From: a virus
Lineage: Duplodnaviria; Caudoviricetes
Length of the DNA stretch: 52,934 bases
Reading direction: 5' to 3' (one strand)
Virus record (IMG/VR): IMGVR_UViG_3300011126_000153
Coordinates: 1-52,934 of that record
Part shown: positions 18,448 through 44,492 of the stretch, in pieces
Layout of the letters: every line of letters begins with the position of its first letter
How positions within the stretch are numbered: position 1 is the stretch's first letter
Notes under the pieces: generated by a model
What the model was told of the DNA's origin: nothing
What the model saw: the letters and a program-made list of their open reading frames with translations, nothing else
Database searches by the model: none
Made by a program: the position numbers and the translations under genes

Positions 18448-18927
18448 TTATGAAATATTCTTATAAAGTTCTGCAATCGGTGTTTCAAAAATTTTTGAAA
18501 GTTTGTATATTATAGAACCAGGTATTTCATCATGAGTTGTTTCATATCTAATAACTTGTTCTGGAGATACATTTAGTTTAATTGCTAGTTCCTTACGATG
18601 CATTTTATGAGTTTTTCTTAGTTCTTTTAAATTCTCAGAAATCTTTTTATCCATATTAGAACACCATTCAATTGGAAGAGTCGTATCGTTTATTGAAAGT
18701 GATGTATTTGCATAAAACTCCTCAATAGGAGTTTTGAAAAATTTTGCAAGTATTGATAATGAGGCAGCTGATATTCTGTTGGTAGCTTTTTCATATTTTT
18801 GAATTTGTTGAATGCTAACATTTAACACATTTCCTAGTCTTCTCTGGCTAAGCCCTTCTTTTATTCTCATTTGTTTTACGTTATGAGCAAGCTGTTTATC
18901 AATTATTGTACTGCGTGTGTTAGTCAT
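18448..18927 (-). CDS. XRE-family regulator with two HTH domains
   Basis: LSQRRLGNVLNVSIQQIQKYEKATNRISA (alphaproteobacterial-type) and a second HTH ELAIKLNVSPEQVIRYE. Confidence 0.9.
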   Translation of the reverse strand: MTNTRSTIIDKQLAHNVKQMRIKEGLSQRRLGNVLNVSIQQIQKYEKATNRISAASLSILAKFFKTPIEEFYANTSLSINDTTLPIEWCSNMDKKISENLKELRKTHKMHRKELAIKLNVSPEQVIRYETTHDEIPGSIIYKLSKIFETPIAELYKNIS

Positions 18928-18977: not shown

Positions 18978-19898
18978 TTATTTCTCTGTTTTTACTAGTT
19001 CAATAAGTTCAAGGCTAGAACTTTTCTTCCAAGCTTCTTTTAAAGAAGCAGATCCTTTATCTGTAATTTTGTTGTGATCTATATATAAGTATTCAAGACT
19101 AGTGTTTATTTTTAAAGCCTCAGCAAAAGCGATAGCTCCTTCGTCTGAAATTTTGGTATAATCTAAATAAAGTGATTTAAGATTAGTGTTTGTTTTTAAA
19201 GCCTCGGCTAATGCAATAGCTCCTTTGTCTGTAATGTGATTCATGCCTAAATCAAGGGAGGTAAGACTAGTATTTGTTTTTAAAGCCTCAGCTAGAGCGA
19301 TCGTTCCTTTGTCTTCAAGGTTGTTAAAACTTAAATCAATAAAATTAAGTGTAGTGTTTGTTTTCAAAGATTCGGCTAATGCAATAACTCCTCTATCTGT
19401 AATTTCATTTTCACCTAAATTAAGAAAGTGAAGTGCAGCGCCTATTTTTAAAACATGCGCCAAAGCAATAGCTCCTTCATCTGCAATCCGGTTCTGAACT
19501 AGTTCAAGCCTATTAAGGGTTAAGTTTTCTTTTACTAAGTCTGGTCTCCAAAACCAATCTTGATCTATAACGTTTCTAGGTACTACAATTCTAGGTAATA
19601 CAACCCAATCTCCTCCTATCAACCAAATCTTAGTTAAAGCAATAACTCCTTCGTCTGAAATTCGGTTGTGACTTAAATCAATACTACGAATAGAAGTATT
19701 TACCTTCAAAGCGTTAGCAAAAGCGATAACTCCTTCGACTGAAATTTGATTATTAGGTAGAAAAAGATGTTTGACCTCTTTATTTGTCATCAATTCGTCG
19801 GCTAATTCTATAGCTCTTTCATCATCTATGCTGCTGTTATATAAACTTAACAGCCCGTCATTTATCCCCCTTATGTATCTTTTAATAGTTGTACTCAT
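18978..19898 (-). CDS. RNI-like (NLRC3-type) leucine-rich repeat protein
   Basis: 28-aa repeats GAIALAEALKTNTxLxxLxLxxNxITDK. Confidence 0.92.
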   Translation of the reverse strand: MSTTIKRYIRGINDGLLSLYNSSIDDERAIELADELMTNKEVKHLFLPNNQISVEGVIAFANALKVNTSIRSIDLSHNRISDEGVIALTKIWLIGGDWVVLPRIVVPRNVIDQDWFWRPDLVKENLTLNRLELVQNRIADEGAIALAHVLKIGAALHFLNLGENEITDRGVIALAESLKTNTTLNFIDLSFNNLEDKGTIALAEALKTNTSLTSLDLGMNHITDKGAIALAEALKTNTNLKSLYLDYTKISDEGAIAFAEALKINTSLEYLYIDHNKITDKGSASLKEAWKKSSSLELIELVKTEK

Positions 19899-19901
19899 AA
19901 G

Positions 19902-20555
19902 TCATTCCTCATTTTTAAAAATTTCGTTATATTGATTCACATATTCCTTTATCATAGGTATACATTCCTCAATTGTTTCGGTAATTAACTTTTGCATTTC
20001 ACTATCGTAATCAACTCTAAATATAAACAACCCATTACCTTTAGTTGCATGTTTGTCGTTATATAGCACGTAATCACACCATTTTCTAGAACAAACGAAC
20101 AAATTGAACTGCATTTGCCATCTATGCTCCTTTGAGATAGCCTCTACGCCCTTCTGAGAGATCTCTACGACCTGTCTAAAATAATTATTAGAATCTGGTG
20201 ACTTAATCTCAATCATGCCATCATCGCCCACTAATCCGTCGGGAGAACACGCTATGTAATCGTTCAATTGTACTAGCCCTACTTCATCAACAGCGGTAAA
20301 TTCAGAAACTATATATTCATTTCGTGCTATTGCTTCATTATCCCATCCTCGCTGAATATGAACATTTACATATTCAGCACCGTCTGATTTACAGCCCGTG
20401 ACTTTTTCGTTGGCTCTATCGTAAAGATATTTCTCACGCGCTGCTTTAGTACCTAGTAGTTTGTAAAAGCAAGAAGCAGTGATTTTACCTAGCCTTAACT
20501 TTAGCCATTCCTCACTGCCTTGCTCTATATCATTGTGTAACTGTATTTGCGACAT
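19902..20555 (-). CDS. YqaJ/lambda-exonuclease family protein
   Basis: QGSEEWLKLRLGKITAS, CSPDGLVG, IEIKSP, QMQFNL, WCDYV. Confidence 0.93.
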   Translation of the reverse strand: MSQIQLHNDIEQGSEEWLKLRLGKITASCFYKLLGTKAAREKYLYDRANEKVTGCKSDGAEYVNVHIQRGWDNEAIARNEYIVSEFTAVDEVGLVQLNDYIACSPDGLVGDDGMIEIKSPDSNNYFRQVVEISQKGVEAISKEHRWQMQFNLFVCSRKWCDYVLYNDKHATKGNGLFIFRVDYDSEMQKLITETIEECIPMIKEYVNQYNEIFKNEE

Positions 20556-21387
20556 TTAAAAACTGCTCTTTAAATTTAAAAAAATTCATTATGCCATTTT
20601 TTACCGTTTCCTTATCATTGCTATTGATATTATGAAAAGTAGCGAATTTCCCAGCGTCTATCTCATTATCTTTGCATAAGCCTATTAATTCTTTTACAAC
20701 TTCTACTTCCTCGCTTTTACTTTCTTCTACTTTTTTTATTTTTTGCGATTTATCATCATCTTTGATATTAAGGCTTTTTCCCTCCATTTCTTCCGCTGTT
20801 GGGTGTTGGCTAACAAATTCAGGAAATGCCTTACGTAACGCTTGTGCTTCAGTACATTTTGCAAGTTGCCCATATGGTCTCTTAGACCACATTGCATTAG
20901 GCGCTTGAGACTGAGATGCTATAGCCACATTTTCCATCCAATATTCTTTCGCGGAAAACTCAACAACTATCCCGTCTATTATTTTTTTTACTGTAACTTT
21001 GCACCATTTTGGATAGGTTATCTTTACTTGTCCAAAAGTGGTTGTTACATCTTCGCCATATTCAGGCTCAACAACACCTGCATATTGTCCACTACGCGCG
21101 GCTTGTATGCGATATAAGCCAATACCTGGCATTATAATATCCCTCCACTCAGAGTTTCTAGTCCCTGGGATTTTAATGTTCATTGGAACTATATGCACTG
21201 GCTTTTGCATTGGGTCTAATTTACCAGCCTTGCAATAATCCAAAACCATTAAAATACTTGCGTCTTTAGCTCCAGTGTATAAGCTGTTTTTAAGTGCCGA
21301 CCAAATAGAAGAGTCAATCCCATATTCATTGGTTGGTTTTGCTATTTGTACTTGTTCTTTTTTTTCTAAATTATTCATATTTTCCAT
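20530..21387 (-). CDS. bet: Phage single-strand annealing protein (Bet/RecT family)
   Basis: YCKAGKLDPMQKPVHIVPM, GIGLYRIQAARSGQYAG, MWSKRPYGQLAKCTEAQALRKAFPE. Confidence 0.92.
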   Translation of the reverse strand: MENMNNLEKKEQVQIAKPTNEYGIDSSIWSALKNSLYTGAKDASILMVLDYCKAGKLDPMQKPVHIVPMNIKIPGTRNSEWRDIIMPGIGLYRIQAARSGQYAGVVEPEYGEDVTTTFGQVKITYPKWCKVTVKKIIDGIVVEFSAKEYWMENVAIASQSQAPNAMWSKRPYGQLAKCTEAQALRKAFPEFVSQHPTAEEMEGKSLNIKDDDKSQKIKKVEESKSEEVEVVKELIGLCKDNEIDAGKFATFHNINSNDKETVKNGIMNFFKFKEQFLNVANTVTQ

Positions 21388-22506: not shown

Positions 22507-22809
22507 TCAATTTAATTTTTCAGATAATAAAGAGGCTTTATATCTCTCTATTAATTCAACGGCTCTATCTGTATTAAGTTTGTATACAAAATTACCGTCT
22601 TTCTCCCTTTCTACAAACTTTCTATCTAATAGTGTTTTTAGGCTAGCGTTTACCGCTTGTCTTGTATGTCCCATAGCTTGTTCTATATTCTTTGCAGACA
22701 TCGGGTAATCGGAAGACTCAATAATATTTAATATATTTTTGTGACTATTAGCTAATATATCTGAATTTCTAATCGCTCTTGATAACATTGTTTTATCCTT
22801 TTTTTTCAT
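22507..22809 (-). CDS. Winged-helix (MarR/TrmB-like) regulator
   Basis: MSAKNIEQAMGHTRQAVNASLKTLLDRKFVER. Confidence 0.85.
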   Translation of the reverse strand: MKKKDKTMLSRAIRNSDILANSHKNILNIIESSDYPMSAKNIEQAMGHTRQAVNASLKTLLDRKFVEREKDGNFVYKLNTDRAVELIERYKASLLSEKLN

Positions 22810-23017
22810 AATTTATAATTCGTATATTTTGTCACTAATGTCAAGCTTGTAATACATTTATCTTGACTATACAAGAAATAATGTATTATATTAACAGAAA
22901 TCTTTAAAAATAATTTATGTAGAAGTTGTATGTAGAAAACAAATGTTTGAGAGAAAAAAGAGAAAGTAAAGGTTTTTGACGCGACAGAACCTAAAAACTG
23001 AAGTAAGAGACAACTTC

Positions 23018-23046
23018 ATAATAGTAAAGTTCTGTCAACAAGTCAA
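23018..23046 (-). promoter_or_regulatory. Antisense-oriented sigma70 promoter in the rep leader
   Basis: TTGACT-N17-TATTAT on the minus strand. Confidence 0.55.
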
Positions 23047-23087: not shown

Positions 23088-24347
23088 ATGGGATTAGCAC
23101 TAAGACAAGAAGAAACAGCAGAAAATCAACAACAAATAGGAAAACTTCTATCCTTCCGTGACGATAAATCTTATTACAGAAAAACATATATGAACTGGGA
23201 TAATATTGAACGAGCCAACAAAAACGATAATGCGGTTCATGGTAGAACTAAGCTTTTAAGTAATCGTGCGAAGAGTATAGCTGCTGTATCCGTGGGAAAA
23301 CTAACAAAAGGGCATAGGGTATTTTTCAATCATAAATACCTCTCTACTATCACCATGTGTGGAAAAAGACAGAACCTAACTATCATTGATGAATTAAGAG
23401 ATATACTTGAGATTACTTACCATAATACGGTCACTCATAACGGTAAGAAATATCGTTATTGTTATGAGTTTTCCTTTAAGTCGGAGAAGCCAGTAAACAC
23501 ACCTACTTCAGAAAGTTCTGTAGCGAGAAATAGCGTACATCAAAACGAAACACTCTATATACAAGAAGAAAATAAACATATTGAAGATATAGATCTATCA
23601 TCTAATATTTTAAATAATTCTTCCTTGCAAATTCAGACTGAAGATTCGAATTTACACGGTAATTCTTTTATAAAAAATTCAGTTACAAAAGCTTTAGCTG
23701 CAAACAGAAGAAAAAAAACCACCAATGCGCAGAAAAAAGCTAGGATTTACCGACCTATGTTCAATAATCAATATCCACAAACTAAAAATTTAGCTTGTCA
23801 TTACCCTTTGACAAGTGAGGATTGTTCATTGTTACAAAGCAGATCGGGTAGGGATTTTACTTTAAACGCTATGAATGAGATATTACTCGCCTTGTCTAAC
23901 AAACCTAAGGAGTCTGAGCATGAGTTCCCATCCAAAGAGGCTTTTCTGGCTTATATGAGCAAGATTTACAGGTATGAAAAACGAGATGCTGTTAAAACTA
24001 GCCAGATAAATTACCAGATAAAAGCAAACATGACCGAATTGGACATAATCGAGCAAACTAATTTCGCACAACGGGAGAAGTTTTTGGATAAAATAGAGCA
24101 AGAGGCAATAAGGCATGTGAGTTCTAATAACCAGCTAAAAGCCAAGCTAGCTAATACATTGCCACCAAGTGTAGCTTATGATTTTCTTTCTAAATTAAGG
24201 CGTTTTTATGTTAATGGGGGAATATTAGAGGCTCATCTAACATCAGCAATAGAACTCAGCCATTCGATACAGCAAATGATTGTAAAAGAGGCTAATGCTG
24301 TTGGTTATACTGGTGTTATGAGTTTAAAAGTGATACAAATGAAATGA
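23088..24347 (+). CDS. Replication initiator resembling Rickettsia-plasmid DnaA-like Rep (copy 1)
   Basis: FNHKYLSTITMCGKRQN..IIDELRDIL..YH..YCYE; LQSRSGRDFTLNAMNEILL; EKRDAVK; recognised from memory of the family. Confidence 0.75.
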   Translation: MGLALRQEETAENQQQIGKLLSFRDDKSYYRKTYMNWDNIERANKNDNAVHGRTKLLSNRAKSIAAVSVGKLTKGHRVFFNHKYLSTITMCGKRQNLTIIDELRDILEITYHNTVTHNGKKYRYCYEFSFKSEKPVNTPTSESSVARNSVHQNETLYIQEENKHIEDIDLSSNILNNSSLQIQTEDSNLHGNSFIKNSVTKALAANRRKKTTNAQKKARIYRPMFNNQYPQTKNLACHYPLTSEDCSLLQSRSGRDFTLNAMNEILLALSNKPKESEHEFPSKEAFLAYMSKIYRYEKRDAVKTSQINYQIKANMTELDIIEQTNFAQREKFLDKIEQEAIRHVSSNNQLKAKLANTLPPSVAYDFLSKLRRFYVNGGILEAHLTSAIELSHSIQQMIVKEANAVGYTGVMSLKVIQMK

Positions 24348-24352
24348 TGTAT

Positions 24353-24427
24353 TGGGATATAGCTCAGCGGTAGAGCGGTAGTCTTTGGTATTGCAGGTCG
24401 GAGGTTCGATCCCTCCTATCCCAGCCA
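24353..24427 (+). tRNA. tRNA-Gln(UUG) with encoded CCA
   Basis: Acceptor TGGGATA/TATCCCA, D arm GCTC/GAGC, anticodon loop CT-TTG-GT, T arm GGAGG-TTCGATC-CCTCC, discriminator G. Confidence 0.93.
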
Positions 24428-24477
24428 AAATAAACAGAAAGCAAAGTATAGTAACGTAAAGAAACAGAAGGTATAAC

Positions 24478-24885
24478 ATGGGTGAAGTAAAAAGAGAAAC
24501 AATTATTGCCGGAATAGCAGGAGTAATAGGAGTAGAGGCGGCGAAAGATTTAGTTAAGGAATCTGAGGATGAAGTAGAAAACGGTGATGTGATGAAAATC
24601 ATAAATATAAACAAAGCAAAAGATCTATCAGAAGAAGCGGTTACAAACATAGCCACTTTTCTAACTCAAATTAAATATCTAGATAAAAGCATGGAGTTTG
24701 TTGAATGTGGAAAGAAATTCGGGATTTTTGATCCTAGAACTATGGAGAAATGCAGGGATCTTAAGTCAGAGACAGCCGAGTGTGCAGATGATTTTATAGC
24801 TTCCACTGGGCATAAAAGATATTACAATGAAGAAGATCATCAAAAATTAAGAGCTAAGATACAAAAAGAATTAGAGAAGGTATAA
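24478..24885 (+). CDS. Hypothetical protein
   Basis: ORF; its 16-bp RBS/start block AGAAGGTATAACATGG is repeated before 24887. Confidence 0.7.
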   Translation: MGEVKRETIIAGIAGVIGVEAAKDLVKESEDEVENGDVMKIININKAKDLSEEAVTNIATFLTQIKYLDKSMEFVECGKKFGIFDPRTMEKCRDLKSETAECADDFIASTGHKRYYNEEDHQKLRAKIQKELEKV

Positions 24886-24886
24886 C

Positions 24887-25192
24887 ATGGCAACACTAGA
24901 CACACACACGATAATTAAGCAACTGATAAGTTCAGGTGTAAAAGAAAAAGAAGCCGAGATTTGGGTTGCTAGCTTTGTATCAAAGAGCGAATTTCTGGAA
25001 GCAGAAAAGGATAAGCAAGGTTTAATCACAAAAGCTGATATTGATATTATTAAGGGTGAAATCAATAACATCAAAGAGAACATGGCTACAAAAACTGATG
25101 TAGTTGAAATCAAAAACGATCTTAAGTGGTTAAAAGCTGCAATCGTTGGTATATTTGGATTATTGCTAAAAATAGCGTTCTTTACTAGCTAG
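24887..25192 (+). CDS. DUF1640/CCDC90-like coiled-coil protein with C-terminal membrane anchor
   Basis: LDTHTIIKQL..G..EKEAE; ITKADI and ATKTDV; hydrophobic C-terminus. Confidence 0.85.
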   Translation: MATLDTHTIIKQLISSGVKEKEAEIWVASFVSKSEFLEAEKDKQGLITKADIDIIKGEINNIKENMATKTDVVEIKNDLKWLKAAIVGIFGLLLKIAFFTS

Positions 25193-25559
25193 AGGAGACG
25201 TGTAACTTCAAAAACTTATCTATCCTAATCAACAACTCTGCTTTCCTTTTTTGCTGCTCAGATGGCTTATATTCGTCTTTATCGTCTATTTCTTCTGTGT
25301 GACGTGCTGCTTTCATAGTTGGTTTTCAATATTCATAGCTGTTAAATCAGCATTTCTTCTATTTTTAAATTCAATTCCCATAATTAAATACACACGCCTA
25401 TCCCTTGCAACAAGGGAAAATTCCATACATAAAATGCAACTCAGCACAGTAGTTAACGAAAGGTTACGAAAGTAATTTCGGTACTTGTTCTCAAAGTATA
25501 TTTCATCTGGTATCTTATTACAACGTAAATTCAGCGCTAACATAAAAAATAGGTTCGTA

Positions 25560-25904
25560 ATGAGTGAAGAAAACATAAATAACCCAGTTGTATGCGAGGT
25601 TTCTAGCTTTCGTTGTTTAGCTAAAATTAATGGCATACCCTTAATGGACGGGACATATCTAGAGCAATTAATTACATATCTTGCAAAAAAGAAAAATTTA
25701 ATACCTTTCGAAGGAATAGTGGACTTAAAAGACTTGTTATCTACCTTTTCTATGAAAAGTGCTAGAGGGATCAGGGCTGTTTTAAAGCGTTTATATAACT
25801 ATGGAGCTTTAATTTTGTACCAAAAAGTAGGTAAGCATCATCAGTATAAATATGCAATTTCAATCAATGCTAATTACGCACAATTCTTTTTCAAGGAAAT
25901 ATAG
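25560..25904 (+). CDS. Putative winged-helix DNA-binding protein
   Basis: DLLSTFSMKSARGIRAVLKRLYNYGAL; ATG start chosen over the upstream TTG. Confidence 0.5.
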   Translation: MSEENINNPVVCEVSSFRCLAKINGIPLMDGTYLEQLITYLAKKKNLIPFEGIVDLKDLLSTFSMKSARGIRAVLKRLYNYGALILYQKVGKHHQYKYAISINANYAQFFFKEI

Positions 25905-25912
25905 GACAACTC

Positions 25913-26050
25913 ATGAAGAAAACATTAGAAGACGCGGTAACAGTAGCTAATCGAATCAAGAGAACGATGAAAACAACAGATTCTACTTTTCATGATGTAG
26001 TCACGTTGCTTGATTTAATAGATGAATTAAAGGAGAAGGTCGATAAATGA
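25913..26050 (+). CDS. Small hypothetical protein, 45 aa (not in track)
   Basis: AGGA RBS; ATGA overlap with the next gene. Confidence 0.6.
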   Translation: MKKTLEDAVTVANRIKRTMKTTDSTFHDVVTLLDLIDELKEKVDK

Positions 26051-26355
26051 AATATACAATTGATGACACACGTAAGTTTATATCGAATATTTACATGTGG
26101 CTTACTACTAACGATGATTTGGACTATATCGAAAGTTGTGTAATGGATTGTTCCTCAGAGGAGTACATGAGGATTCGCTGCAAGTTAAACGCAATTTCAA
26201 AAGATAGTAGGTCTGCTCTTAATAAAGTCGCTGAGTATGTAGATGAGACCGATGCTTGCATGCGAATATTAAGAGTAGCTGCTGAAAGAGAGCGAAATAT
26301 TAGGAAAGAAGAAAAGGCTTATAAAAAGCTCAATAAGGGGGCTATTAATGAGTAA
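26047..26355 (+). CDS. Hypothetical protein
   Basis: ORF coupled to both neighbours. Confidence 0.7.
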   Translation: MKYTIDDTRKFISNIYMWLTTNDDLDYIESCVMDCSSEEYMRIRCKLNAISKDSRSALNKVAEYVDETDACMRILRVAAERERNIRKEEKAYKKLNKGAINE

Positions 26356-27613
26356 AGCATCAATGAAACGAATGCCTATAAATAACCTGTACTATTTTGA
26401 CAAGGGGGATCAAAAGCACAAATTCACCTACGACCAAGTTAAAAGGGCTACTAAATATATTACTCGTGCTAATGATAGAACTAAGACCATAGGGAACAAG
26501 CAAGCAGCTATTTTAGTTACGGACTTAGTGGATAGGCTAAATAAAAGCGAGAACGGATCTATTTATGTAGATCATGATTATCTTTCTAGCATCACGGATT
26601 GTTTGCCAGATCAGAATACAAAAATAATTAAGCAGCTAGCAGATATACTAGATTTTCAATATCACCGTTATGCAAGACAGGTAAAGCAATCATATTGCTA
26701 TGAAGTCAAATATACACATGATGGTGAAGATAGAATCAAAAACCCAGAACTATTTTATGATGTAAAACCTCCTAAAAACGAGGAAAGGAGGCCTAAAAAT
26801 ATCGCGATAGAACCAAAACCATACCCGATAAAAATCGGGGTTATAGCCGATAAAAATCAGCCATCATATATAGATATAAGAGATAAGGAAGAAATAAAAG
26901 AAAAAGAAGAATTAGATCCTTCTTTTTCTTTAGCGCGCGAGGTTATAACGAAATTTCCAACTAATTCTAAAACCCCAACCAAAACAAACGAGGAGAAAAC
27001 CGTGAACACGGAGAAAATTAAGCCCATAACGCAGTTATCATCCGAAATTTTTAGAAATTTTGATACTCAAACCAGTGAGGAGATCATAGAAAACTGTGTT
27101 TTTGAGGAGGTTACACCTAGTAAAATAGCCATCAACATAAAACCTAGCTTTGCTATGTCTGGCGAGAACAAGCAAAAAATTAAATCCTGTATTCGTAAGC
27201 TTTACGGGGAGGATGTACAGATGGTCAATGCCTCGTCTACCGTCCCGCAAAAACCTAAATTCTCTGTTGCAAAAGTAGCTCGTGAGGAGGGGAATCCACC
27301 AGAAACCCGAAAAAACGTTAGCCACGAATGGGGTGATATGAAAACGAAAATACTTGAGCGTTTTCCTTTGGATTACTACGATCACCTAAAGTCAGCATGG
27401 CTAGATAATCTAAATTTTATTAGGTTTGAAGATGAAAAAATAATAGTCCGAGCGCGTGCTTTTTATATTGATGAGATCTTTCAGCGATTCTCTCATGCAA
27501 TTGAACTAGCCGTGCTTAATACGAAGAAAAGCCTAGTTATTCAATACGAAAACAATGACCAACGACCGATCGAATTTTTATATAAACAAATTTTAAACAA
27601 GAGTAAAAAATGA
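26348..27613 (+). CDS. Replication initiator with C-terminal DnaA_N-like domain (copy 2)
   Basis: N-terminus paralogous to 23088 (ITRAN, HDYLSSITDC..QN..IIKQLADIL..YH..YCYE); C-terminal W..KSAWLDNL..IIVRA..FYIDEI..RF matches DnaA domain I. Confidence 0.8.
   Translation: MSKASMKRMPINNLYYFDKGDQKHKFTYDQVKRATKYITRANDRTKTIGNKQAAILVTDLVDRLNKSENGSIYVDHDYLSSITDCLPDQNTKIIKQLADILDFQYHRYARQVKQSYCYEVKYTHDGEDRIKNPELFYDVKPPKNEERRPKNIAIEPKPYPIKIGVIADKNQPSYIDIRDKEEIKEKEELDPSFSLAREVITKFPTNSKTPTKTNEEKTVNTEKIKPITQLSSEIFRNFDTQTSEEIIENCVFEEVTPSKIAINIKPSFAMSGENKQKIKSCIRKLYGEDVQMVNASSTVPQKPKFSVAKVAREEGNPPETRKNVSHEWGDMKTKILERFPLDYYDHLKSAWLDNLNFIRFEDEKIIVRARAFYIDEIFQRFSHAIELAVLNTKKSLVIQYENNDQRPIEFLYKQILNKSKK
26768..26861. 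repeat. Iteron-like repeats inside rep copy 2 (candidate origin)
   Basis: CCTCCTAAAAACGAGG, GGCCTAAAAATATCGC, CCCGATAAAAATCGGG, GCCGATAAAAATCAGC, followed by an A/T-rich tract. Confidence 0.6.
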
Positions 27614-28179
27614 TTATTTCAAGATTAAAGCCTTATGCCATCAGTATTTTATCTATTTTTGATAAAGAGCCTAAAAAAATGGGTGCATATGTAAAACCTA
27701 GTGTGCCAAAGGCTGTGAGGAGAAAATTGCGCAAGAAGTGTTTTCAATATAAAAGTTGGCCAAGAGGCTTAACTAGATATGATAAATTCACCGTTAATGA
27801 TCTAAACAAAGTTATAGAGAAAGGACAAAAAGGCTTTACGTTGAATGCTATAAACAGAAATAGTCATAATTTTTGTGGGCAGAACATAAGCTACGGTACT
27901 ATAAAAAAATGGTGGGATTTTTATAACTGCGACGTTAAAAACAGTATCGAACATAAGGGTATAAGCTCAGATAAACTTGATAAAACTTTAACTGCAAAAG
28001 AAGCGGCGGAAATTCTTGATATAAAACTATGTAACATTTGGGGTTTGCTAAATAGTAAAGTTCTCAAGGCTAGAAGAACTAACAAGAGAAAAAATGGGCA
28101 ATATTTAATATGCCATAAAAGCGTAGATGAATTAAAAAAAATCATAATAAACAATACTCAAAAAGGAGAAAAAGTATGA
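27610..28179 (+). CDS. DNA-binding protein with C-terminal excisionase-like (HTH_17) domain
   Basis: LTAKEAAEILDI..IWGLL..LKARR..GQYLI. Confidence 0.75.
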   Translation: MIISRLKPYAISILSIFDKEPKKMGAYVKPSVPKAVRRKLRKKCFQYKSWPRGLTRYDKFTVNDLNKVIEKGQKGFTLNAINRNSHNFCGQNISYGTIKKWWDFYNCDVKNSIEHKGISSDKLDKTLTAKEAAEILDIKLCNIWGLLNSKVLKARRTNKRKNGQYLICHKSVDELKKIIINNTQKGEKV

Positions 28180-28425
28180 ATACGGATGAGCATGAGGATG
28201 AGCATGAGAATGTGGATGTGGACGAAATAGCTAAAGGCCTTACTTTATCTTTTGAAAAAGCAATTGAAAAAATAAATGAAAAGGGTGAGGAGTATATATT
28301 TATGTCGATGGAAGAACCAGTTGTAGAGCGGAAGGGTAACGAAATTTTTATAGAATGGAAGGCAAAAAAGCCTAATTAAAAAACATAATAAACAATACTC
28401 AAAAAGGAGAAAAAGTATGAATACG
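28143..28425 (+). repeat. 42-bp direct repeat (28143-28184 and 28384-28425) spanning RBS and start
   Basis: CATAATAAACAATACTCAAAAAGGAGAAAAAGTATGAATACG twice. Confidence 0.9.
28176..28379 (+). CDS. Small acidic protein, paralogue of 28417
   Basis: Shared C-terminus MEEPVVERKGNEIFIEWKAK. Confidence 0.75.
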   Translation: MNTDEHEDEHENVDVDEIAKGLTLSFEKAIEKINEKGEEYIFMSMEEPVVERKGNEIFIEWKAKKPN

Positions 28426-28617
28426 ATAGATGAAAAATTATATTTAAAAGCCAAATTAACACATGAAGAAGATAAAGTCATTTTACAGGTCAAAGGAATG
28501 ACTAGAGAAGATGATGAAAAAGAAGATATAGAGGGGGGTGTATTTGAGATGATGGAAGACCCTATTGTACAAAGGAAGGGTGACGAATTTTTTATAGAAT
28601 GGAGGGCAAAAGTATGA
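28417..28617 (+). CDS. Small acidic protein, paralogue of 28176
   Basis: MEDPIVQRKGDEFFIEWRAK. Confidence 0.75.
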   Translation: MNTIDEKLYLKAKLTHEEDKVILQVKGMTREDDEKEDIEGGVFEMMEDPIVQRKGDEFFIEWRAKV

Positions 28618-28874
28618 ATACAATAGATATAAGGCGTGAATATGGCAGTGTTGTGTTTCGTTTAAGAGAGTCCGTTAAGGCTCGCGCGGACTGGTATGTT
28701 GAATATAATGAGCATGTTTATTCAAAAGAAGAAATATTTTACTTCGAGTTTTTAGATAAATGTATAGAGGATGATATTAAACAATTGCAATTAGCGGTAA
28801 AGCAGAATGAAAAAGATAACGATAAAAATATAATAAACTTTAAATCCAAGAATGGAGATAAAAATGAGAAATAG
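28614..28874 (+). CDS. Hypothetical protein (MNTID start)
   Basis: ATGA overlap; GGAGG RBS. Confidence 0.65.
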   Translation: MNTIDIRREYGSVVFRLRESVKARADWYVEYNEHVYSKEEIFYFEFLDKCIEDDIKQLQLAVKQNEKDNDKNIINFKSKNGDKNEK

Positions 28875-29283
28875 CGCAGAAATACAGCTGATAGGATATG
28901 TTTACCAAGATGCAAAATGCCCGAATGAGCAAGCTTATCCTAACTGGGTAACGTTTAAAGTTTGTGTTAATAAAAAATATAAAGATAAAAGCGGACAAGA
29001 ACAACAAGATACTAGCTGGTTCGAATGTAAATCTAATTCTGAAAAACAATCTCAGTTAATTAAATTATACGTTAAAGATAAAAGCGGAATACTCGTAAGA
29101 GGAATACCTAAAGTAAGAGCCTATACCTCGAGCGCAGGTACTGCTGAAGGTAGCATAGAAGTAATGGTTACATCCTTTGATGTTTTAACTAAGCCCAAGG
29201 GTAATAACACGACCTCTGAGAGTAACTATTCAAATAAGAGTGTACCTGTAGAATCGTTTAAAGATGATGATATCCCGTTTTAG
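28864..29283 (+). CDS. ssb: Single-stranded DNA-binding protein
   Basis: N..QLIG, YKDKSGQEQQDTSWF, acidic DDDIPF tail. Confidence 0.93.
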   Translation: MRNSAEIQLIGYVYQDAKCPNEQAYPNWVTFKVCVNKKYKDKSGQEQQDTSWFECKSNSEKQSQLIKLYVKDKSGILVRGIPKVRAYTSSAGTAEGSIEVMVTSFDVLTKPKGNNTTSESNYSNKSVPVESFKDDDIPF

Positions 29284-30847: not shown

Positions 30848-31519
30848 CTATTCGTCAATATAGTTGATTGTTCGTTCACCGCTTTCGCTAATGTGTAATA
30901 CGTCATAATCTTCTACTACAGTCATACTTTTTAGCTCAAGTTTCATAAGTGAATCATTTGTTCCCAGTGCCTCAGCAAATGCAATTGCTCCGTACTCGGA
31001 TATTATATTATGACTTAGATCAAGGTTTTTAAGAGTATGATTGAACTTTAAAGAATGGGCAATTGATGCTGCTCCGCTATAAGTAATCAAACACTGAATT
31101 AGCTCAAGAGTAGTGAGAGTAGTATTAACCTTTAAAGCCTGGGAAAATTCATCTGCCATTACATCCCCCATATAAGCATCTATTATACTAAGAGAAGATA
31201 GTTTTTTATTAAAATGTAAAGCCTCGGCGATAGCAGTAGTATCACACATTTTGGTATGGATTAGCTCTAGGCTCTCGAGAGTATCATTTACTTTTAAAGC
31301 TTCGCCTAATGCAATAGCTCCTTCCTCTTCTATTGATATGTCTCCTATATAAAGCCCGGTAACAGATTTATTTACTTTTAAAGCTTCCGCTAGAGCAATT
31401 ATTTCTTCAGTCGTTAGCTTTACAAATTCTTCACCTGAATTGTCGTAATTAGATAAGAATATCATGTTGTCTTTGTTTTTAGTGGCTAGAAATTCGTGTA
31501 TAATTGATAGGTATTTCAT
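30848..31519 (-). CDS. Second RNI-like (NLRC3-type) LRR protein
   Basis: Repeats such as GAIALGEALKVNDTLESLEL and LKFNHTLKNLDLSHNII; AGGAG RBS. Confidence 0.9.
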   Translation of the reverse strand: MKYLSIIHEFLATKNKDNMIFLSNYDNSGEEFVKLTTEEIIALAEALKVNKSVTGLYIGDISIEEEGAIALGEALKVNDTLESLELIHTKMCDTTAIAEALHFNKKLSSLSIIDAYMGDVMADEFSQALKVNTTLTTLELIQCLITYSGAASIAHSLKFNHTLKNLDLSHNIISEYGAIAFAEALGTNDSLMKLELKSMTVVEDYDVLHISESGERTINYIDE

Positions 31520-39802: not shown

Positions 39803-39825
39803 GTGTTAATTGTTGGAGGTAGACG

Positions 39826-39993
39826 ATGTTAAAAGTTTTTATAGATGTTTTATTAATATGGGTTGTTGTAAGCGAATTGGAACATTTTAGTGTGATATCT
39901 ACAGATAATCACTATATCAATATAATTTGTGGTTGTGTGGGTATGGGTTTAGTAATGGTATTTAGCTACATGAAAAAAAGTAAAAAGAAGTAG
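39826..39993 (+). CDS. 55-aa protein with two hydrophobic segments and a basic tail (holin-like; not in track)
   Basis: GGAGG RBS; MLKVFIDVLLIWVVVSELEHFSVISTDNHYINIICGCVGMGLVMVFSYMKKSKKK; paralogue of 40001. Confidence 0.65.
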   Translation: MLKVFIDVLLIWVVVSELEHFSVISTDNHYINIICGCVGMGLVMVFSYMKKSKKK

Positions 39994-40000
39994 GTAGAAG

Positions 40001-40333
40001 ATGTTAAGATGGTTGATAAATGTTTTATGCGTAATTTTGGTGGTTAAAGGACTTGAATATTTTGATGTGTTATCTGTAGATTATCACTATATCAGTATAA
40101 TTTGTGGGTATATGTATTTGGATTTATCAAGCGATATAGACAAAGTAATAAAAACTCAACAAGAAAAACTGGATGAAATAATAAAAGCTCAAGGAGAATT
40201 AAAAGAATCTCAAGGAGAATTAAAAAAAGAGTCTTGGGAAGAGAGAAGATTGGCTGTTAAACATTTAGCAAAGTTTATTAAGTATGAACATAAAACAATA
40301 TTGGAAGAAATAAGAGGGGAATATAAAAAATAG
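40001..40333 (+). CDS. Membrane protein with coiled-coil tail; paralogue of 39826
   Basis: Shared LExF.V.S.D.HYI.IICG. Confidence 0.7.
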   Translation: MLRWLINVLCVILVVKGLEYFDVLSVDYHYISIICGYMYLDLSSDIDKVIKTQQEKLDEIIKAQGELKESQGELKKESWEERRLAVKHLAKFIKYEHKTILEEIRGEYKK

Positions 40334-42134: not shown

Positions 42135-42854
42135 ATGGTTAACAATAAATTCGTTGCTTTTGTTACATTAAGCTTATTGATAGCAATTAATTATGCATCA
42201 ATATCATGCGCAGAACCTAAGCAAAACCAATATTATATAAAGATGGTAAATACACTCTCTAATATATCGGGTATTAAAGCAAATGAGCCTGATTTAAATT
42301 TCAAATTAACGCAGGGGTCAAAGCTGTCTCCATCTATTGGTTTGGGTTTTGGTTATTATATTAATGATAGATTTAGAGTTGATACTATATTTGAGTTAGC
42401 AAGATTTAATTTCGACAAAGAATCCTCCGGCTTCGAATGTAATAACGGAATTTCTACATCAGTAGGGACTAAATCCATGCAACGTAAGAGTAGCAGTAAA
42501 TCTATAATGTTCAATGGTTATGCAGATCTAGCAGAGAGGAACGGACATAAAATATTTATAGGTGCAGGTGTCGGAGCTATAAGAATATCAGAGAAAATAA
42601 CTCATACTTTGTCAGGAACTACTTTATCACCTCTTGGCGCTCATACCTTTCCTTTGCTAACTGAAAATAATACTAACAAAGTGAGAAACAAGTTAGCTTA
42701 TTCATTGATGTTAGGTAGTAGCTTTAAGGTGTATCCTCAAATAAATATTGAGCTAATGTATAGTTGGAAAAATCTAGGTAAAGTTAAATGCTCGAATTTT
42801 AATAGCCAATATAAAGGTCATCATTTTTCTATTGGATCACGCTTTGATATTTAA
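42135..42854 (+). CDS. Outer-membrane beta-barrel protein (opacity/OmpA-TM-like; Rickettsiales surface antigen type)
   Basis: Signal peptide; GLGFGYYINDRFRVD, MFNGYADL, FIGAGVG, IELMYSWKNLG, C-terminal GSRFDI. Confidence 0.9.
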   Translation: MVNNKFVAFVTLSLLIAINYASISCAEPKQNQYYIKMVNTLSNISGIKANEPDLNFKLTQGSKLSPSIGLGFGYYINDRFRVDTIFELARFNFDKESSGFECNNGISTSVGTKSMQRKSSSKSIMFNGYADLAERNGHKIFIGAGVGAIRISEKITHTLSGTTLSPLGAHTFPLLTENNTNKVRNKLAYSLMLGSSFKVYPQINIELMYSWKNLGKVKCSNFNSQYKGHHFSIGSRFDI

Positions 42855-42869: not shown

Positions 42870-44492
42870 ATGACTAACAATACCAATAAAAAGTTATCTG
42901 ATCTTGAAGTAGATACATTAGAAAGTCATGCAAATGCATTGATGGCGGAGATATCGTTATATGAGTTCTTAAAGCAGGCATGGCCTAATATAGTAGGTGA
43001 TCAGGAATTTATTGGAGGGAAGCACATAGAGGTGATTTGTGAGCATTTAGAGCTTGTAGCTAGCCGCAAGATAAAAAAATTACTTATTAATCTCCCTCCT
43101 AGATTCTCTAAATCAACATTGATTTCTGTAGCCTTTCCCGCTTGGGTTTGGTTACGTAATCCTTCTGAGAGATTTTTATGCTCTAGTTACGCTTTGCAAT
43201 TAGCTCATCGTGATTCTAGGTTTTGTCGTACTCTTATGCAGTCTCCATGGTATAAGAAACACTGGAAAGCTCGTTTTTCATTATTAAAAGATCAGAATAC
43301 CAAGGGAAGATTTGATAATACACATAGGGGGTCTCGTATAGCTACTTCTTCCAAGAGTGCAGCCACTGGAGAGGGTGGCTCTATTTTGATAAGTGATGAT
43401 GCTAATAATATCAAAGATGGACAATCGAAGGTAGATAGAGAGGGGCGAATAAATTGGTGGTCGCAGGTTTGGTCTACTAGATTAAATAACAAGAAAAATG
43501 ACTGCATGATTGTTGTTCAACAAAGATCACATGAACGAGATATCTCGGGCTATATTATGGATAATGATGTAAGTGATTCTTGGGTTAAATTAATTATGCC
43601 TATGGAGTTTGAGCTAAATAGAAAGGCTAAAACAGTAGTATTGCCATCTACCAACGGTAAAGTATGGGAGGATTGGAGAACAGAAGAAGGAGAACTACTT
43701 TGTCCAGAGCGTTTTGGTGCTAAAGAAGTTGAGCAAACAAAAGAGGATTTAGGCAGTTATGGTTATGCAGGACAATATCAACAACGTCCTTCACCAGCAA
43801 AAGGCTGTATAATTCAGAAGGAATGGTTTAGATGGTGGAAAGATTCAACTCCTCCACAAATTGATTTTGTTGTTCAGAGTTGGGATACAGCTCTTACTAC
43901 AAAGAAAATTACACAGGAAGCTGGGGGTGGAATAACATCTTATTCGGCCTGTACTACATGGGGAGTATTCAATGATGAGAATAATATACCTAACGTTATT
44001 TTATTATCTATGTGGAGAGGAAGGGAGGAATATCCGGAGGTTAGAGAAAGAACTAAACGTTTATACTTTGATTATAGGGATACGGGAAAAGAAAGAGAAC
44101 CTAGATTTAAAGGTAAAAATGTAGATATGTGCCTTATTGAATCTAAGGCCTCAGGATCTCCTTTAATTCAAGATTTAATATTAGCGGGAGTTCAAGCTAT
44201 GCCTTTTGATCCTAAAAAACATGGTGATAAAGAGGGAAGGGTGCGTTTAATTACTCCTTTAATAGAAGGTGGTAGGGTGTGGCTTCCTGCTAGAGCGCCT
44301 AAATTCACTGCTTTATTACCATTTGCAGATGAGTTTTTAGAGGCAGTCTCTGGTTTTCCTAACGCTGAGTCTAAAGATATAGTAGATACTATGTCTCAAG
44401 CTTTCCTGAAATTAAAATACGGTTATTTTATCTCAAGTCCAAAGGACGAAAGGCATTCACAACCTTATGTAAAAGAGGTGAATCTCTACTAA
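42870..44492 (+). CDS. terL: Terminase large subunit
   Basis: LLINLPPRFSKS Walker A, TGEGGSILISDD, GQYQQRP, QSWDTA, IESKASG, FPNAESKDIVD. Confidence 0.95.
   Translation: MTNNTNKKLSDLEVDTLESHANALMAEISLYEFLKQAWPNIVGDQEFIGGKHIEVICEHLELVASRKIKKLLINLPPRFSKSTLISVAFPAWVWLRNPSERFLCSSYALQLAHRDSRFCRTLMQSPWYKKHWKARFSLLKDQNTKGRFDNTHRGSRIATSSKSAATGEGGSILISDDANNIKDGQSKVDREGRINWWSQVWSTRLNNKKNDCMIVVQQRSHERDISGYIMDNDVSDSWVKLIMPMEFELNRKAKTVVLPSTNGKVWEDWRTEEGELLCPERFGAKEVEQTKEDLGSYGYAGQYQQRPSPAKGCIIQKEWFRWWKDSTPPQIDFVVQSWDTALTTKKITQEAGGGITSYSACTTWGVFNDENNIPNVILLSMWRGREEYPEVRERTKRLYFDYRDTGKEREPRFKGKNVDMCLIESKASGSPLIQDLILAGVQAMPFDPKKHGDKEGRVRLITPLIEGGRVWLPARAPKFTALLPFADEFLEAVSGFPNAESKDIVDTMSQAFLKLKYGYFISSPKDERHSQPYVKEVNLY

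Follow-up and report, generated by a model that had tools for sequence, protein, structure and literature searches.

Paralogous initiator-like genes, one with a candidate in-gene origin, in a tailed phage genome with links to Megaira phage-plasmids and Rickettsia plasmids

The DNA analysed here (the window) is the whole IMG/VR virus record IMGVR_UViG_3300011126_000153, which is 52,934 bp long, has direct terminal repeats and is estimated to be complete. A preliminary description, made from the sequence alone, had proposed that two of its genes encode paralogous replication initiators that might serve plasmid and lytic replication, respectively. These two open reading frames (ORFs), here called ORF1 (type 1) and ORF2 (type 2), and the domains predicted for their products are as follows.

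23088..24347, plus strand: ORF1 (type 1), 419 amino acids (aa), intact frame
ORF1 domains: winged-helix N, residues ~26-131 (59-130 in the model); disordered linker, 134-208; M, ~206-312; KH1, ~340-419 (346-417 in the model)
23703..24344, plus strand: the M and KH1 part of ORF1, sharing homology with the C-terminal portion of the DnaA-like proteins of Rickettsia plasmids
26348..27613, plus strand: ORF2 (type 2), 421 aa, intact frame
ORF2 domains: winged-helix N', residues ~10-140 (16-136 in the model); disordered linker, 142-224; KH1', ~225-296 (226-294 in the model); KH2', ~318-402 (320-400 in the model)

Judged by their sequences, ORF1 and ORF2 are paralogues. BLASTP aligns residues 35-130 of ORF1 with residues 26-122 of ORF2 (34% identity over ~99 aa, E 3e-13), and the shared motifs first remarked on (I.RAN, H.YLS.IT.C, QN..II..L.DIL, YH and YCYE) all fall within this alignment; the gene coordinates and protein lengths given at that time also hold. 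The C-terminal halves had been described as different, which is true of pairwise BLAST, but a profile-profile alignment spans nearly the full length of both proteins (probability 99.5%, E 3.8e-23). Both genes are under purifying selection, with ratios of nonsynonymous to synonymous substitution (dN/dS) of 0.26 for ORF1 and 0.32 for ORF2 when compared with the closest relative, locus L007.

The ORF1 family comprises 184 proteins at E <= 0.001, the ORF2 family comprises 10 proteins, and the N winged-helix domain alone is represented by 116 clusters among 1.84 billion proteins. Relatives of ORF1 occur in three lengths, namely ~345 aa (N-M), ~420 aa (N-M-KH1, as in ORF1) and ~485-554 aa (N-M-KH1-KH2). 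The ~345-aa form is the commonest, and the ~420-aa form is likewise common in nature, with many relatives of 405-448 aa. Two proteins of ~2190 aa each (P0174 and P0196) contain five or six matched stretches of the N domain, a multi-copy architecture that was unexpected. In addition, a 153-aa ORF comprising only the N domain directly precedes a long type-1 gene in pPCS148 (L002, 5535-5993) and in a viral contig (L008, 7995-8453).

AlphaFold2 (AF2) models of both proteins were built on family alignments and used for a structural search against 48,161 solved chains. KH1 of ORF1 and both KH1' and KH2' of ORF2 are each modelled as an alpha-alpha-beta-beta-alpha-beta fold, and the M domain of ORF1 is modelled as helical with a beta hairpin (residues 243-312). 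Domain I of Bacillus subtilis DnaA (4tps_D) ranks first for ORF2 residues 318-401 (Z 8.2, root-mean-square deviation (rmsd) 2.8, 80 of 84 residues) and second for ORF1 residues 345-418 (Z 8.4, rmsd 2.4, 73 residues), local predicted distance difference test (pLDDT) values in these two parts being mostly ~75-90. Domain I of Helicobacter pylori DnaA (2wp0_D) scores Z 6.7 with ORF2 and 7.8 with ORF1, and the helicase loader DciA scores Z 6.5 with ORF1 (Foldseek E 0.036). In DnaA and DciA this fold contacts the replicative helicase. The N domains resemble many winged helices (Z 6-8.8), including that of a staphylococcal RepA_N initiator (22% identity). Foldseek returned no solved structure at E <= 0.001 for either model.

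According to these models, both proteins end in a DnaA-domain-I-like fold, with ORF1 lacking the last module and ORF2 lacking M. The preliminary description had assigned a DnaA_N-like ending to the second protein only. This distinction stands in so far as ORF1 lacks the last DnaA_N module, to which the last domain of ORF2 aligns, but not for the fold itself, which ends both models. The closest 529-aa relative of the ORF1 protein (72% identical) carries Pfam DnaA_N at residues 457-516, and ORF1 stops after KH1; the KH2 domain of the long relatives (485-554 aa) passes Pfam DnaA_N as well. In the profile-profile alignment, KH1' of ORF2 is paired with KH1 of ORF1 and the last domain of ORF2 with the DnaA_N of long type-1 forms, the latter pairing sitting in a match that is driven mainly by the N domain. 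A hidden Markov model (HMM) of the long-form DnaA_N segment matches the type-2 proteins of L039, L040, L042 and L046 (E 8e-5 to 6e-9) and not that of the window, and Pfam DnaA_N (PF11638) matches neither ORF1 nor ORF2 at E <= 0.1 and nothing window-wide at E <= 1. The family profile aligned with residues 1-76 of Thermotoga maritima DnaA at E 0.083, and a complex prediction of ORF2 residues 225-421 with ORF1 residues 335-419 scored 0.00, which argues neither for nor against binding. These findings support a replication-initiator anatomy for both genes, and are best explained by descent from one design comprising an N-terminal winged helix, a disordered linker and C-terminal DnaA-domain-I folds.

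Within the linker-coding DNA of ORF2 lies a group of elements resembling a replication origin.

26768-26783 and 26790-26805: a pair of weaker A-tract dyads, picked out by eye
26825..26860: two dyad-symmetric repeats, CCGATAAAAATCGG and CCGATAAAAATCAG, starting at 26825 and 26847 (22 bp apart) in different codon phases; candidate iterons
26866..26896: AT-rich stretch with a ATATATAGATATA core, lying after the repeats and before the palindrome; candidate unwinding element
26897..26931: 35-nucleotide (nt) palindrome with 16-nt arms, one mismatch and a 3-nt loop
26932-26939: GC-rich run directly after the palindrome

The repeats, AT-rich stretch, palindrome and GC-rich run follow one another in that order. 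For comparison, 12 type-2 genes were used, which are all of the whole ones with KH' HMM matches (two genes cut by the locus end were excluded). At the homologous place all 12 have a hairpin whose arms are 11 nt or longer, with starts in all three codon phases, and the background of such hairpins is 146 in 204 kb (0.71 per kb). The hairpins were assessed one by one, as alignments of the palindromes lacked the symmetry needed for counting paired changes. The hairpin arms differ by locus (only L011 and L059 share one element) and have folding energies of -12 to -25 kcal/mol. A statistic for the 22-bp spacing was used because repeat copy number alone is not significant. A pair of 11-mers at exactly 22-nt spacing occurs within the 130 nt upstream of the hairpin in 9 of the 12 genes, compared with 34 of 3096 background windows (1.1%), and control spacings of 18-21 and 23-26 nt were found in 0-1 of the 12 genes and a spacing of 44 nt in 6. 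The repeat units vary between phages, all being short dyads around an A/T tract, and an ATATATA element is present at the equivalent place in relatives. The repeat motif of the window is absent from all 55 loci of other sources examined. The conservation is one of layout and not of sequence. The iteron-like repeats that had been noted inside the second gene are in this way borne out comparatively, by the 22-bp phasing, even if no more than two clear copies are seen in the window. Among ten further type-2 variants with a different C-terminus, eight have a hairpin within gene positions 450-625, as judged by presence in that interval alone.

We consider ORF2 to be probably an initiator with an in-gene origin, mainly because this cis layout matches that of ori lambda, which lies inside gene O and likewise consists of repeats, an AT-rich stretch and a palindrome. 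The predicted ORF2 protein resembles lambda O in that a linker joins an N-terminal DNA-binding domain to a C-terminal recruitment domain, and the linker-coding DNA of both carries dyad repeats, then an AT-rich stretch, then a palindrome (26825-26931 in the window, and recurring in relatives). In contrast with lambda O, ORF2 has two clear repeats in the window rather than four, exhibits no sequence or family match (Pfam E <= 0.1, PHROG E <= 0.01) and has a C-terminus of two DnaA-domain-I-like modules, which would suggest direct contact with the host helicase in place of a P-like partner.

Two other systems invite comparison. In the RepA_N family the origin also lies inside the rep gene, and the N-terminal DNA-binding domain of RepA_N initiators from staphylococcal multiresistance plasmids (4pql, 4pt7, 4pta and 5kbj) is in the best Foldseek rows of ORF2, at 22% identity. 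However, these matches are weak (Foldseek E 0.009-0.14; Z 6.2, rmsd 6.1), there is no Pfam RepA_N match, and the C-terminal domains differ. The second is UXM65462, a protein of the Megaira phage MAnkyphage_25.80 (OP381185) annotated only as hypothetical, which is a type-2 homologue with 41% identity over ORF2 residues 1-137. By HMM it has N', KH1' and KH2' like ORF2, and in its gene three phased repeats and a perfect palindrome occupy the corresponding position. MAnkyphage has no type-1 gene and has a resolvase-annotated gene.

A link between these phage genes and rickettsial plasmid Rep proteins had also been suggested, and it is found in the C-terminal half of ORF1. A tblastn search with this half matched plasmid records of Rickettsia (24) and Megaira (11) in 'DnaA N-terminal domain-containing' proteins, residues ~190-410 being 29-30% identical in the 24 Rickettsia records, and in the 820-aa pRM protein of Rickettsia monacensis the alignment with the ORF1 family profile covers residues 492-815 (hhalign probability 99.5%, E 2.1e-22). 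Excerpted text of PMC4316617 describes the DnaA-like protein as the sole protein common to all sequenced Rickettsia plasmids and as conserved in its C-terminal region only. According to excerpts of PMC3244465, fragments of pRAM18 and pRAM32 with parA, the dnaA-like gene and the intervening sequence replicate autonomously in shuttle vectors, and autonomous replication from parA plus dnaA-like fragments is likewise described in excerpts of PMC9004397; the terms 'origin of replication' and 'iteron' are unused in these excerpts of the two papers.

The DnaA-like proteins of pRM, pRAM18 and pRAM32 share with ORF1 the M and KH1 region (ORF1 residues ~206-419), and their terminal Pfam DnaA_N is present in the longer ORF1 relatives but not in ORF1 itself. 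The Rickettsia proteins differ in their length of 750-930 aa and in an N-terminal part of ~490 aa that is unmatched to the phage N domain. They are plasmid-borne beside parA, whereas ORF1 is located in a phage early operon with no adjacent parA. A further likeness to the phage genes is a ~23-nt dyad/A-tract repeat pair at exactly 22-bp spacing inside the genes of pRM (L056, gene positions 1228-1272) and pRPR (L061, 1023-1067). The pair lies 250-370 nt upstream of the part coding for the M domain, and in pRM is then followed by AT-rich repeats and palindromes. At the same threshold, pRF, pRA1 and pRiCimp001 have no 22-bp-phased pair, such that two of five Rickettsia plasmids are positive. The pair in pRM and pRPR may mark the still unmapped plasmid origin.

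On its 5' side, ORF1 is preceded by a divergent regulator gene and a leader with the following features.

22507..22809, minus strand: MarR-like winged-helix regulator, divergent from ORF1 (Pfam MarR_2, E 2.8e-8; PHROG transcriptional regulator)
22863..22892, plus strand: sigma-70-like promoter match (TTGACT, 18 nt, TATATT), ~195 nt upstream of the ORF1 start, 10 of 12 positions matching
22983-22990 and 23029-23036: outer inverted repeat flanking the leader hairpin
22999..23018, plus strand: leader hairpin, 6 pairs in the window, 8-nt loop

The MarR-like protein, which has a homologue at the equivalent position in many related loci, is the probable phage repressor of this switch region. The leader had been called regulated-looking, an impression that the comparison of 15 related leaders confirms. 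RNAalifold yields a 7-pair hairpin with compensatory changes at 5 pairs, in which 88.9% of cells are paired compared with 65.4 +/- 3.4 in shuffles, and 0 of 500 shuffles reach the observed value. Its covariation score is 0.528, whereas sliding the partners gives 0.04-0.20. In L007 the leader is almost unchanged over its proximal 130 nt, while the MarR-like protein next to it shares only 39% identity. Taken alone, the ORF1 leader does not fold with unusual stability (z -0.91) and matches no Rfam family, and promoter-like matches are no more frequent in the region than chance would give (28 versus 24.3 +/- 5.7 in shuffles). Farther downstream, type-1 linkers keep a CTCTATATATA element, and many short type-1 forms have a perfect palindrome of ~24-28 bp located ~20 bp upstream of it. 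Such palindromes occur in L014, L020, L021, L029, L039, L042 and L044 (gene ~+370 to +440), and their sequences differ between distant loci.

The distribution of the two genes was examined in 49 viral loci found with the ORF1 profile. A type-2 gene lies downstream of type 1 within the fetched flank in 17 of these. Of five whole records with no type 2 in the flank, four hold one farther away and the other is a fragment of 45% completeness, and one of three more whole records searched also holds a type-2 gene. The pair is therefore present in at least 22 of the 49 loci, the remaining 24 being covered within the flank only. In some relatives with no type 2 in the flank, type 1 is followed by an ORF resembling single-strand DNA-binding protein (SSB) and by a DEAD/SNF2-like helicase ORF, as assigned by eye with no family scan.

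Each type also occurs alone. The complete MAnkyphage genome has type 2 only, and CP113869, a circular 64-kb Megaira element, has type 1 only, together with tail-fibre, RecT, terminase, ParA and toxin-antitoxin genes. CP113869.1, CP113870.1 and AP017967.1 are circular Megaira polyxenophila 'plasmids' whose terminase is ~50% identical to that of the window, and these three records filed as plasmids look like phage-plasmids or decaying ones. ParA is encoded, several kb away, in all five related records tested. The phage family to which the window belongs also includes members found as ParA-bearing circular 'plasmids'. CP113869 carries, in addition, PemK/MazE genes, several group II introns and insertion sequence (IS) copies.

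Since a complete element exists for each type without the other, we read ORF1 and ORF2 as two separable replicons. In the proposed mechanism, ORF2 would be a phage-type initiator that works like lambda O. Its N' domain would probably bind as a dimer to the 22-bp-phased dyads of the linker-coding part of the gene. Opening would follow at the neighbouring AT-rich stretch and palindrome, and host DnaB would be recruited by the pair of DnaA-domain-I-like modules at the C-terminus. ORF1 would be a plasmid-type initiator, in which the N domain is fused to the M and KH1 core common to Rickettsia plasmid DnaA-like Reps. As the first gene beside the repressor-like gene, and with a conserved structured leader, ORF1 would serve episomal maintenance, and ORF2 would serve phage replication. 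This is the best explanation overall, and we give it close to, and a little below, an even chance. Among its parts, we lean slightly towards ORF1 being an initiator, and a true plasmid/lytic division of labour is proposed more tentatively than the explanation as a whole. Such a division is favoured by the separability seen in MAnkyphage and CP113869, by the ParA of the five relatives, and by the lack of an integrase in the window, where six-frame searches found neither a tyrosine integrase nor a serine recombinase.

A precedent is provided by the plasmid prophage P1, which has RepA with oriR and RepL with oriL, oriL being inside repL. As in P1, one phage has two initiator or initiator-like genes and one origin candidate is inside its initiator gene, and the episomal lifestyle with ParA is found among the window's relatives. 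Unlike in P1, the two proteins of the window are paralogues belonging to a single family. Neither is homologous to RepA or RepL (Pfam RepL has just one match in the region, a weak one to the MarR-like protein), the window has no partition genes, and a second origin was not found. We infer DNA binding, origin function, helicase recruitment and the assignment of each gene to a mode of replication; a P1-like division of labour is plausible rather than proven.

Several observations weigh against two separable replicons. Neither ORF1 nor ORF2 matched any Pfam (E <= 0.1), PHROG or NCBIfam model. Overall confidence in the AF2 models is modest (mean pLDDT 61.7 and 64.7, with folded domains mostly at 70-90), and Z scores of ~8 are only at the upper edge of the range that unrelated models reach. 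The window repeat motif has just its two clear copies, with no further copy in the window at <= 2 mismatches, and, by copy number alone, repeats of this kind are common in such AT-rich DNA. The nominal binomial P of 5e-16 for the 22-nt spacing is overstated, since the type-2 loci are related by descent. The origin-like site was found for ORF2 only, with no second origin. Type-1 genes show no enrichment of the 22-bp phasing (5 of 27), neither phased repeats nor an origin-like site could be attributed to ORF1, and the linker palindrome is degenerate in the window and in L007. The place of ORF1, the proposed maintenance initiator, directly under a repressor-like switch would also suit a lytic early gene. 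Six-frame searches of the window for CbiA-type ParA and ParB_N found none, and BLAST against three ParA-bearing stretches revealed no counterpart in the window of the ParA of its relatives. The earlier claim that the window encodes no DnaB-type replicative helicase holds within the limits of a six-frame DnaB_C search and of family scans covering ~50 of the 77 ORFs.

The main alternative, which is possible if on the unlikely side, is a single replicon, with ORF2 and its in-gene origin alone responsible for initiation and ORF1 an accessory or regulatory paralogue. ORF1 might then be an early transcription regulator, a copy-number or origin-occupancy controller acting on similar dyads, or a helicase-delivery adaptor. 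The N domains of the two proteins have the conserved R-A-N and Q-N residues in common, which makes related DNA sites possible, and the single palindrome of many type-1 linkers resembles the type-2 repeats (GGACA..TGTCC class). A regulatory role would also fit the position of ORF1 beside the repressor-like gene, its conserved structured leader and the lack of origin-like phased repeats in type-1 genes, but not so readily CP113869, a circular element with ParA that has type 1 and no type 2, or MAnkyphage, which manages with no type 1 at all. Similarly, the commonest type-1 form (~345 aa) lacks any DnaA-domain-I-like domain, but the M and KH core of ORF1 corresponds to what is conserved in the Rickettsia plasmid Rep, and a region with that gene and parA replicates autonomously according to the excerpts cited above.

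It is improbable, in our estimation, that the repeats and palindrome of ORF2 are something other than an origin, such as an RNA-level element (for attenuation, processing or translational pausing) or a packaging or recombination site, with ORF1 and ORF2 acting as DNA-binding regulators. The palindrome does fold as RNA too (-12 to -25 kcal/mol across the type-2 genes), and a consensus scan flags terminator-like hairpins there on the minus strand. However, the exact phasing of 22 bp, which is not a multiple of 3, is a feature of the DNA helix, and the repeats are dyad-symmetric and lie beside an AT-rich stretch, in a layout like the one that ori lambda has within gene O. Neither protein is named by any family model, and the origin function is a putative one, but both proteins have predicted DnaA-domain-I-like domains, ORF1 is homologous to a plasmid Rep, and an SSB gene follows in the same block. 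That one copy is a decaying, non-functional duplicate, as the missing terminal DnaA_N of ORF1 relative to its 529-aa relative might suggest, is very improbable and already disfavoured by the two intact frames, the low dN/dS values, the recurrence of the pair in at least 22 of 49 loci and the many relatives of 405-448 aa that share the ~420-aa form.

In a more far-reaching reading, an ancestral initiator with an in-gene origin might have been duplicated in a phage of a Rickettsiaceae endosymbiont to give two compatible replicons, and type 1 might be the module from which the DnaA-like Rep of all Rickettsia plasmids arose, or else one captured from that Rep. We rate this history as rather unlikely. 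If true, rickettsial plasmids and these phage-plasmids would share one replication ancestry, and the Rickettsia plasmid origin would be inside the DnaA-like gene, at the 22-bp-phased dyads of pRM and pRPR.

Initiators with in-gene origins and dual replicons are both known kinds of system. What may be new is that both jobs are done by paralogues of one unnamed family. New as well are the connection that this family makes between endosymbiont phages and Rickettsia plasmids, and the origin-like layout visible inside the DnaA-like genes of pRM and pRPR. Within the partial texts of the literature on Megaira DnaA-like proteins, Rickettsiales phage-plasmids and Rickettsia plasmid origins or iterons, no paper on this system was found. 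The analysis provides a concrete candidate replication origin, with coordinates, repeats and palindrome, for a family of endosymbiont phages and phage-plasmids and, by extension, suggests where a Rickettsia plasmid origin may be sought. It also defines an unnamed family of putative initiators, with a winged-helix N domain, an M domain and DnaA-domain-I-like modules, and adds several Megaira 'plasmids' to the elements that look like phage-plasmids. The natural one-gene variants offer a way to ask if one protein family runs both maintenance and lytic replication.

Further features of the window are listed below.

19902-21387, minus strand: RecT/RecE-like recombination pair
24353..24427, plus strand: tRNA-Gln (anticodon ttg), 5 nt past the ORF1 stop (ARAGORN; Rfam tRNA, 62 bits)
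26047..26355, plus strand: 102-aa ORF, its end overlapping the ORF2 start by 8 nt
27610..28179, plus strand: HTH_17/excisionase-like DNA-binding protein, its start overlapping the ORF2 stop
28852..29283, plus strand: SSB, in the same operon-like block downstream of ORF2 (PHROG 44, E 9.8e-14)
42870-44492: large terminase
45016-47664: portal

The window is best explained as a complete tailed-phage genome with a Megaira-like (Rickettsiaceae) host. Its identity as a tailed phage is assigned because of the terminase, portal and structural proteins, together with the complete record with terminal repeats; virion and tail-fibre-like proteins are also encoded. The closest named relatives are elements of Candidatus Megaira polyxenophila, comprising phage MAnkyphage_25.80 and several records filed as plasmids. 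GC skew tracks gene orientation and turns at the divergent switch at ~21-23 kb, not at ORF2, and was taken as uninformative.

The 102-aa ORF is a conserved upstream neighbour of the type-2 gene, and its L007 copy (87% identical) lies directly 5' of the ORF2 homologue. The protein encoded at 27610..28179, which matches Pfam HTH_17 (E 2.2e-5, below the curated cut-off) and a PHROG excisionase (E 0.0018), has a 70% identical counterpart at the same position in L007. SSB follows the type-2 gene in L040, L042, L046 and L058. The tRNA-Gln gene is the sole Rfam match in the region scanned; a tRNA-Gln (ttg) is also found 3' of the ORF1 homologue in L007 and is absent in 18 other related loci scanned. 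Two small ORFs (28176-28379 and 28417-28617; 67 and 66 aa) are paralogous, and the 48-nt stretches upstream of each are 98% alike.

Several other observations were made elsewhere in the window. The leftward block ends with a second repressor-like gene (18448-18927, minus strand), whose product has two Cro/C1-type HTH domains (HTH_3, E 6.8e-21). Two leucine-rich-repeat (LRR) proteins, at 18978-19898 and 30848-31519 (both minus strand), are made of 84-nt DNA repeats, the first matching LRR_6 at E 1.3e-45, and eukaryote-like repeat proteins of this kind are frequent in endosymbiont phages. A k-mer scan of 17-32 kb for clusters of at least 4 repeat copies returned only protein-coding LRR repeats. 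Directly before the terminase, 42135-42854 encodes an outer-membrane beta-barrel-like protein (OMP_b-brl, E 2.5e-4, below cut-off), and CP113869 also has a porin-annotated gene beside its terminase. The 3' part of the portal gene contains, at 47194-47618, ~4.9 tandem copies of an 87-nt unit, and a 135-nt unit occurs twice in a small-ORF region (39817-40126), the two copies being 73% alike and 175 nt apart.

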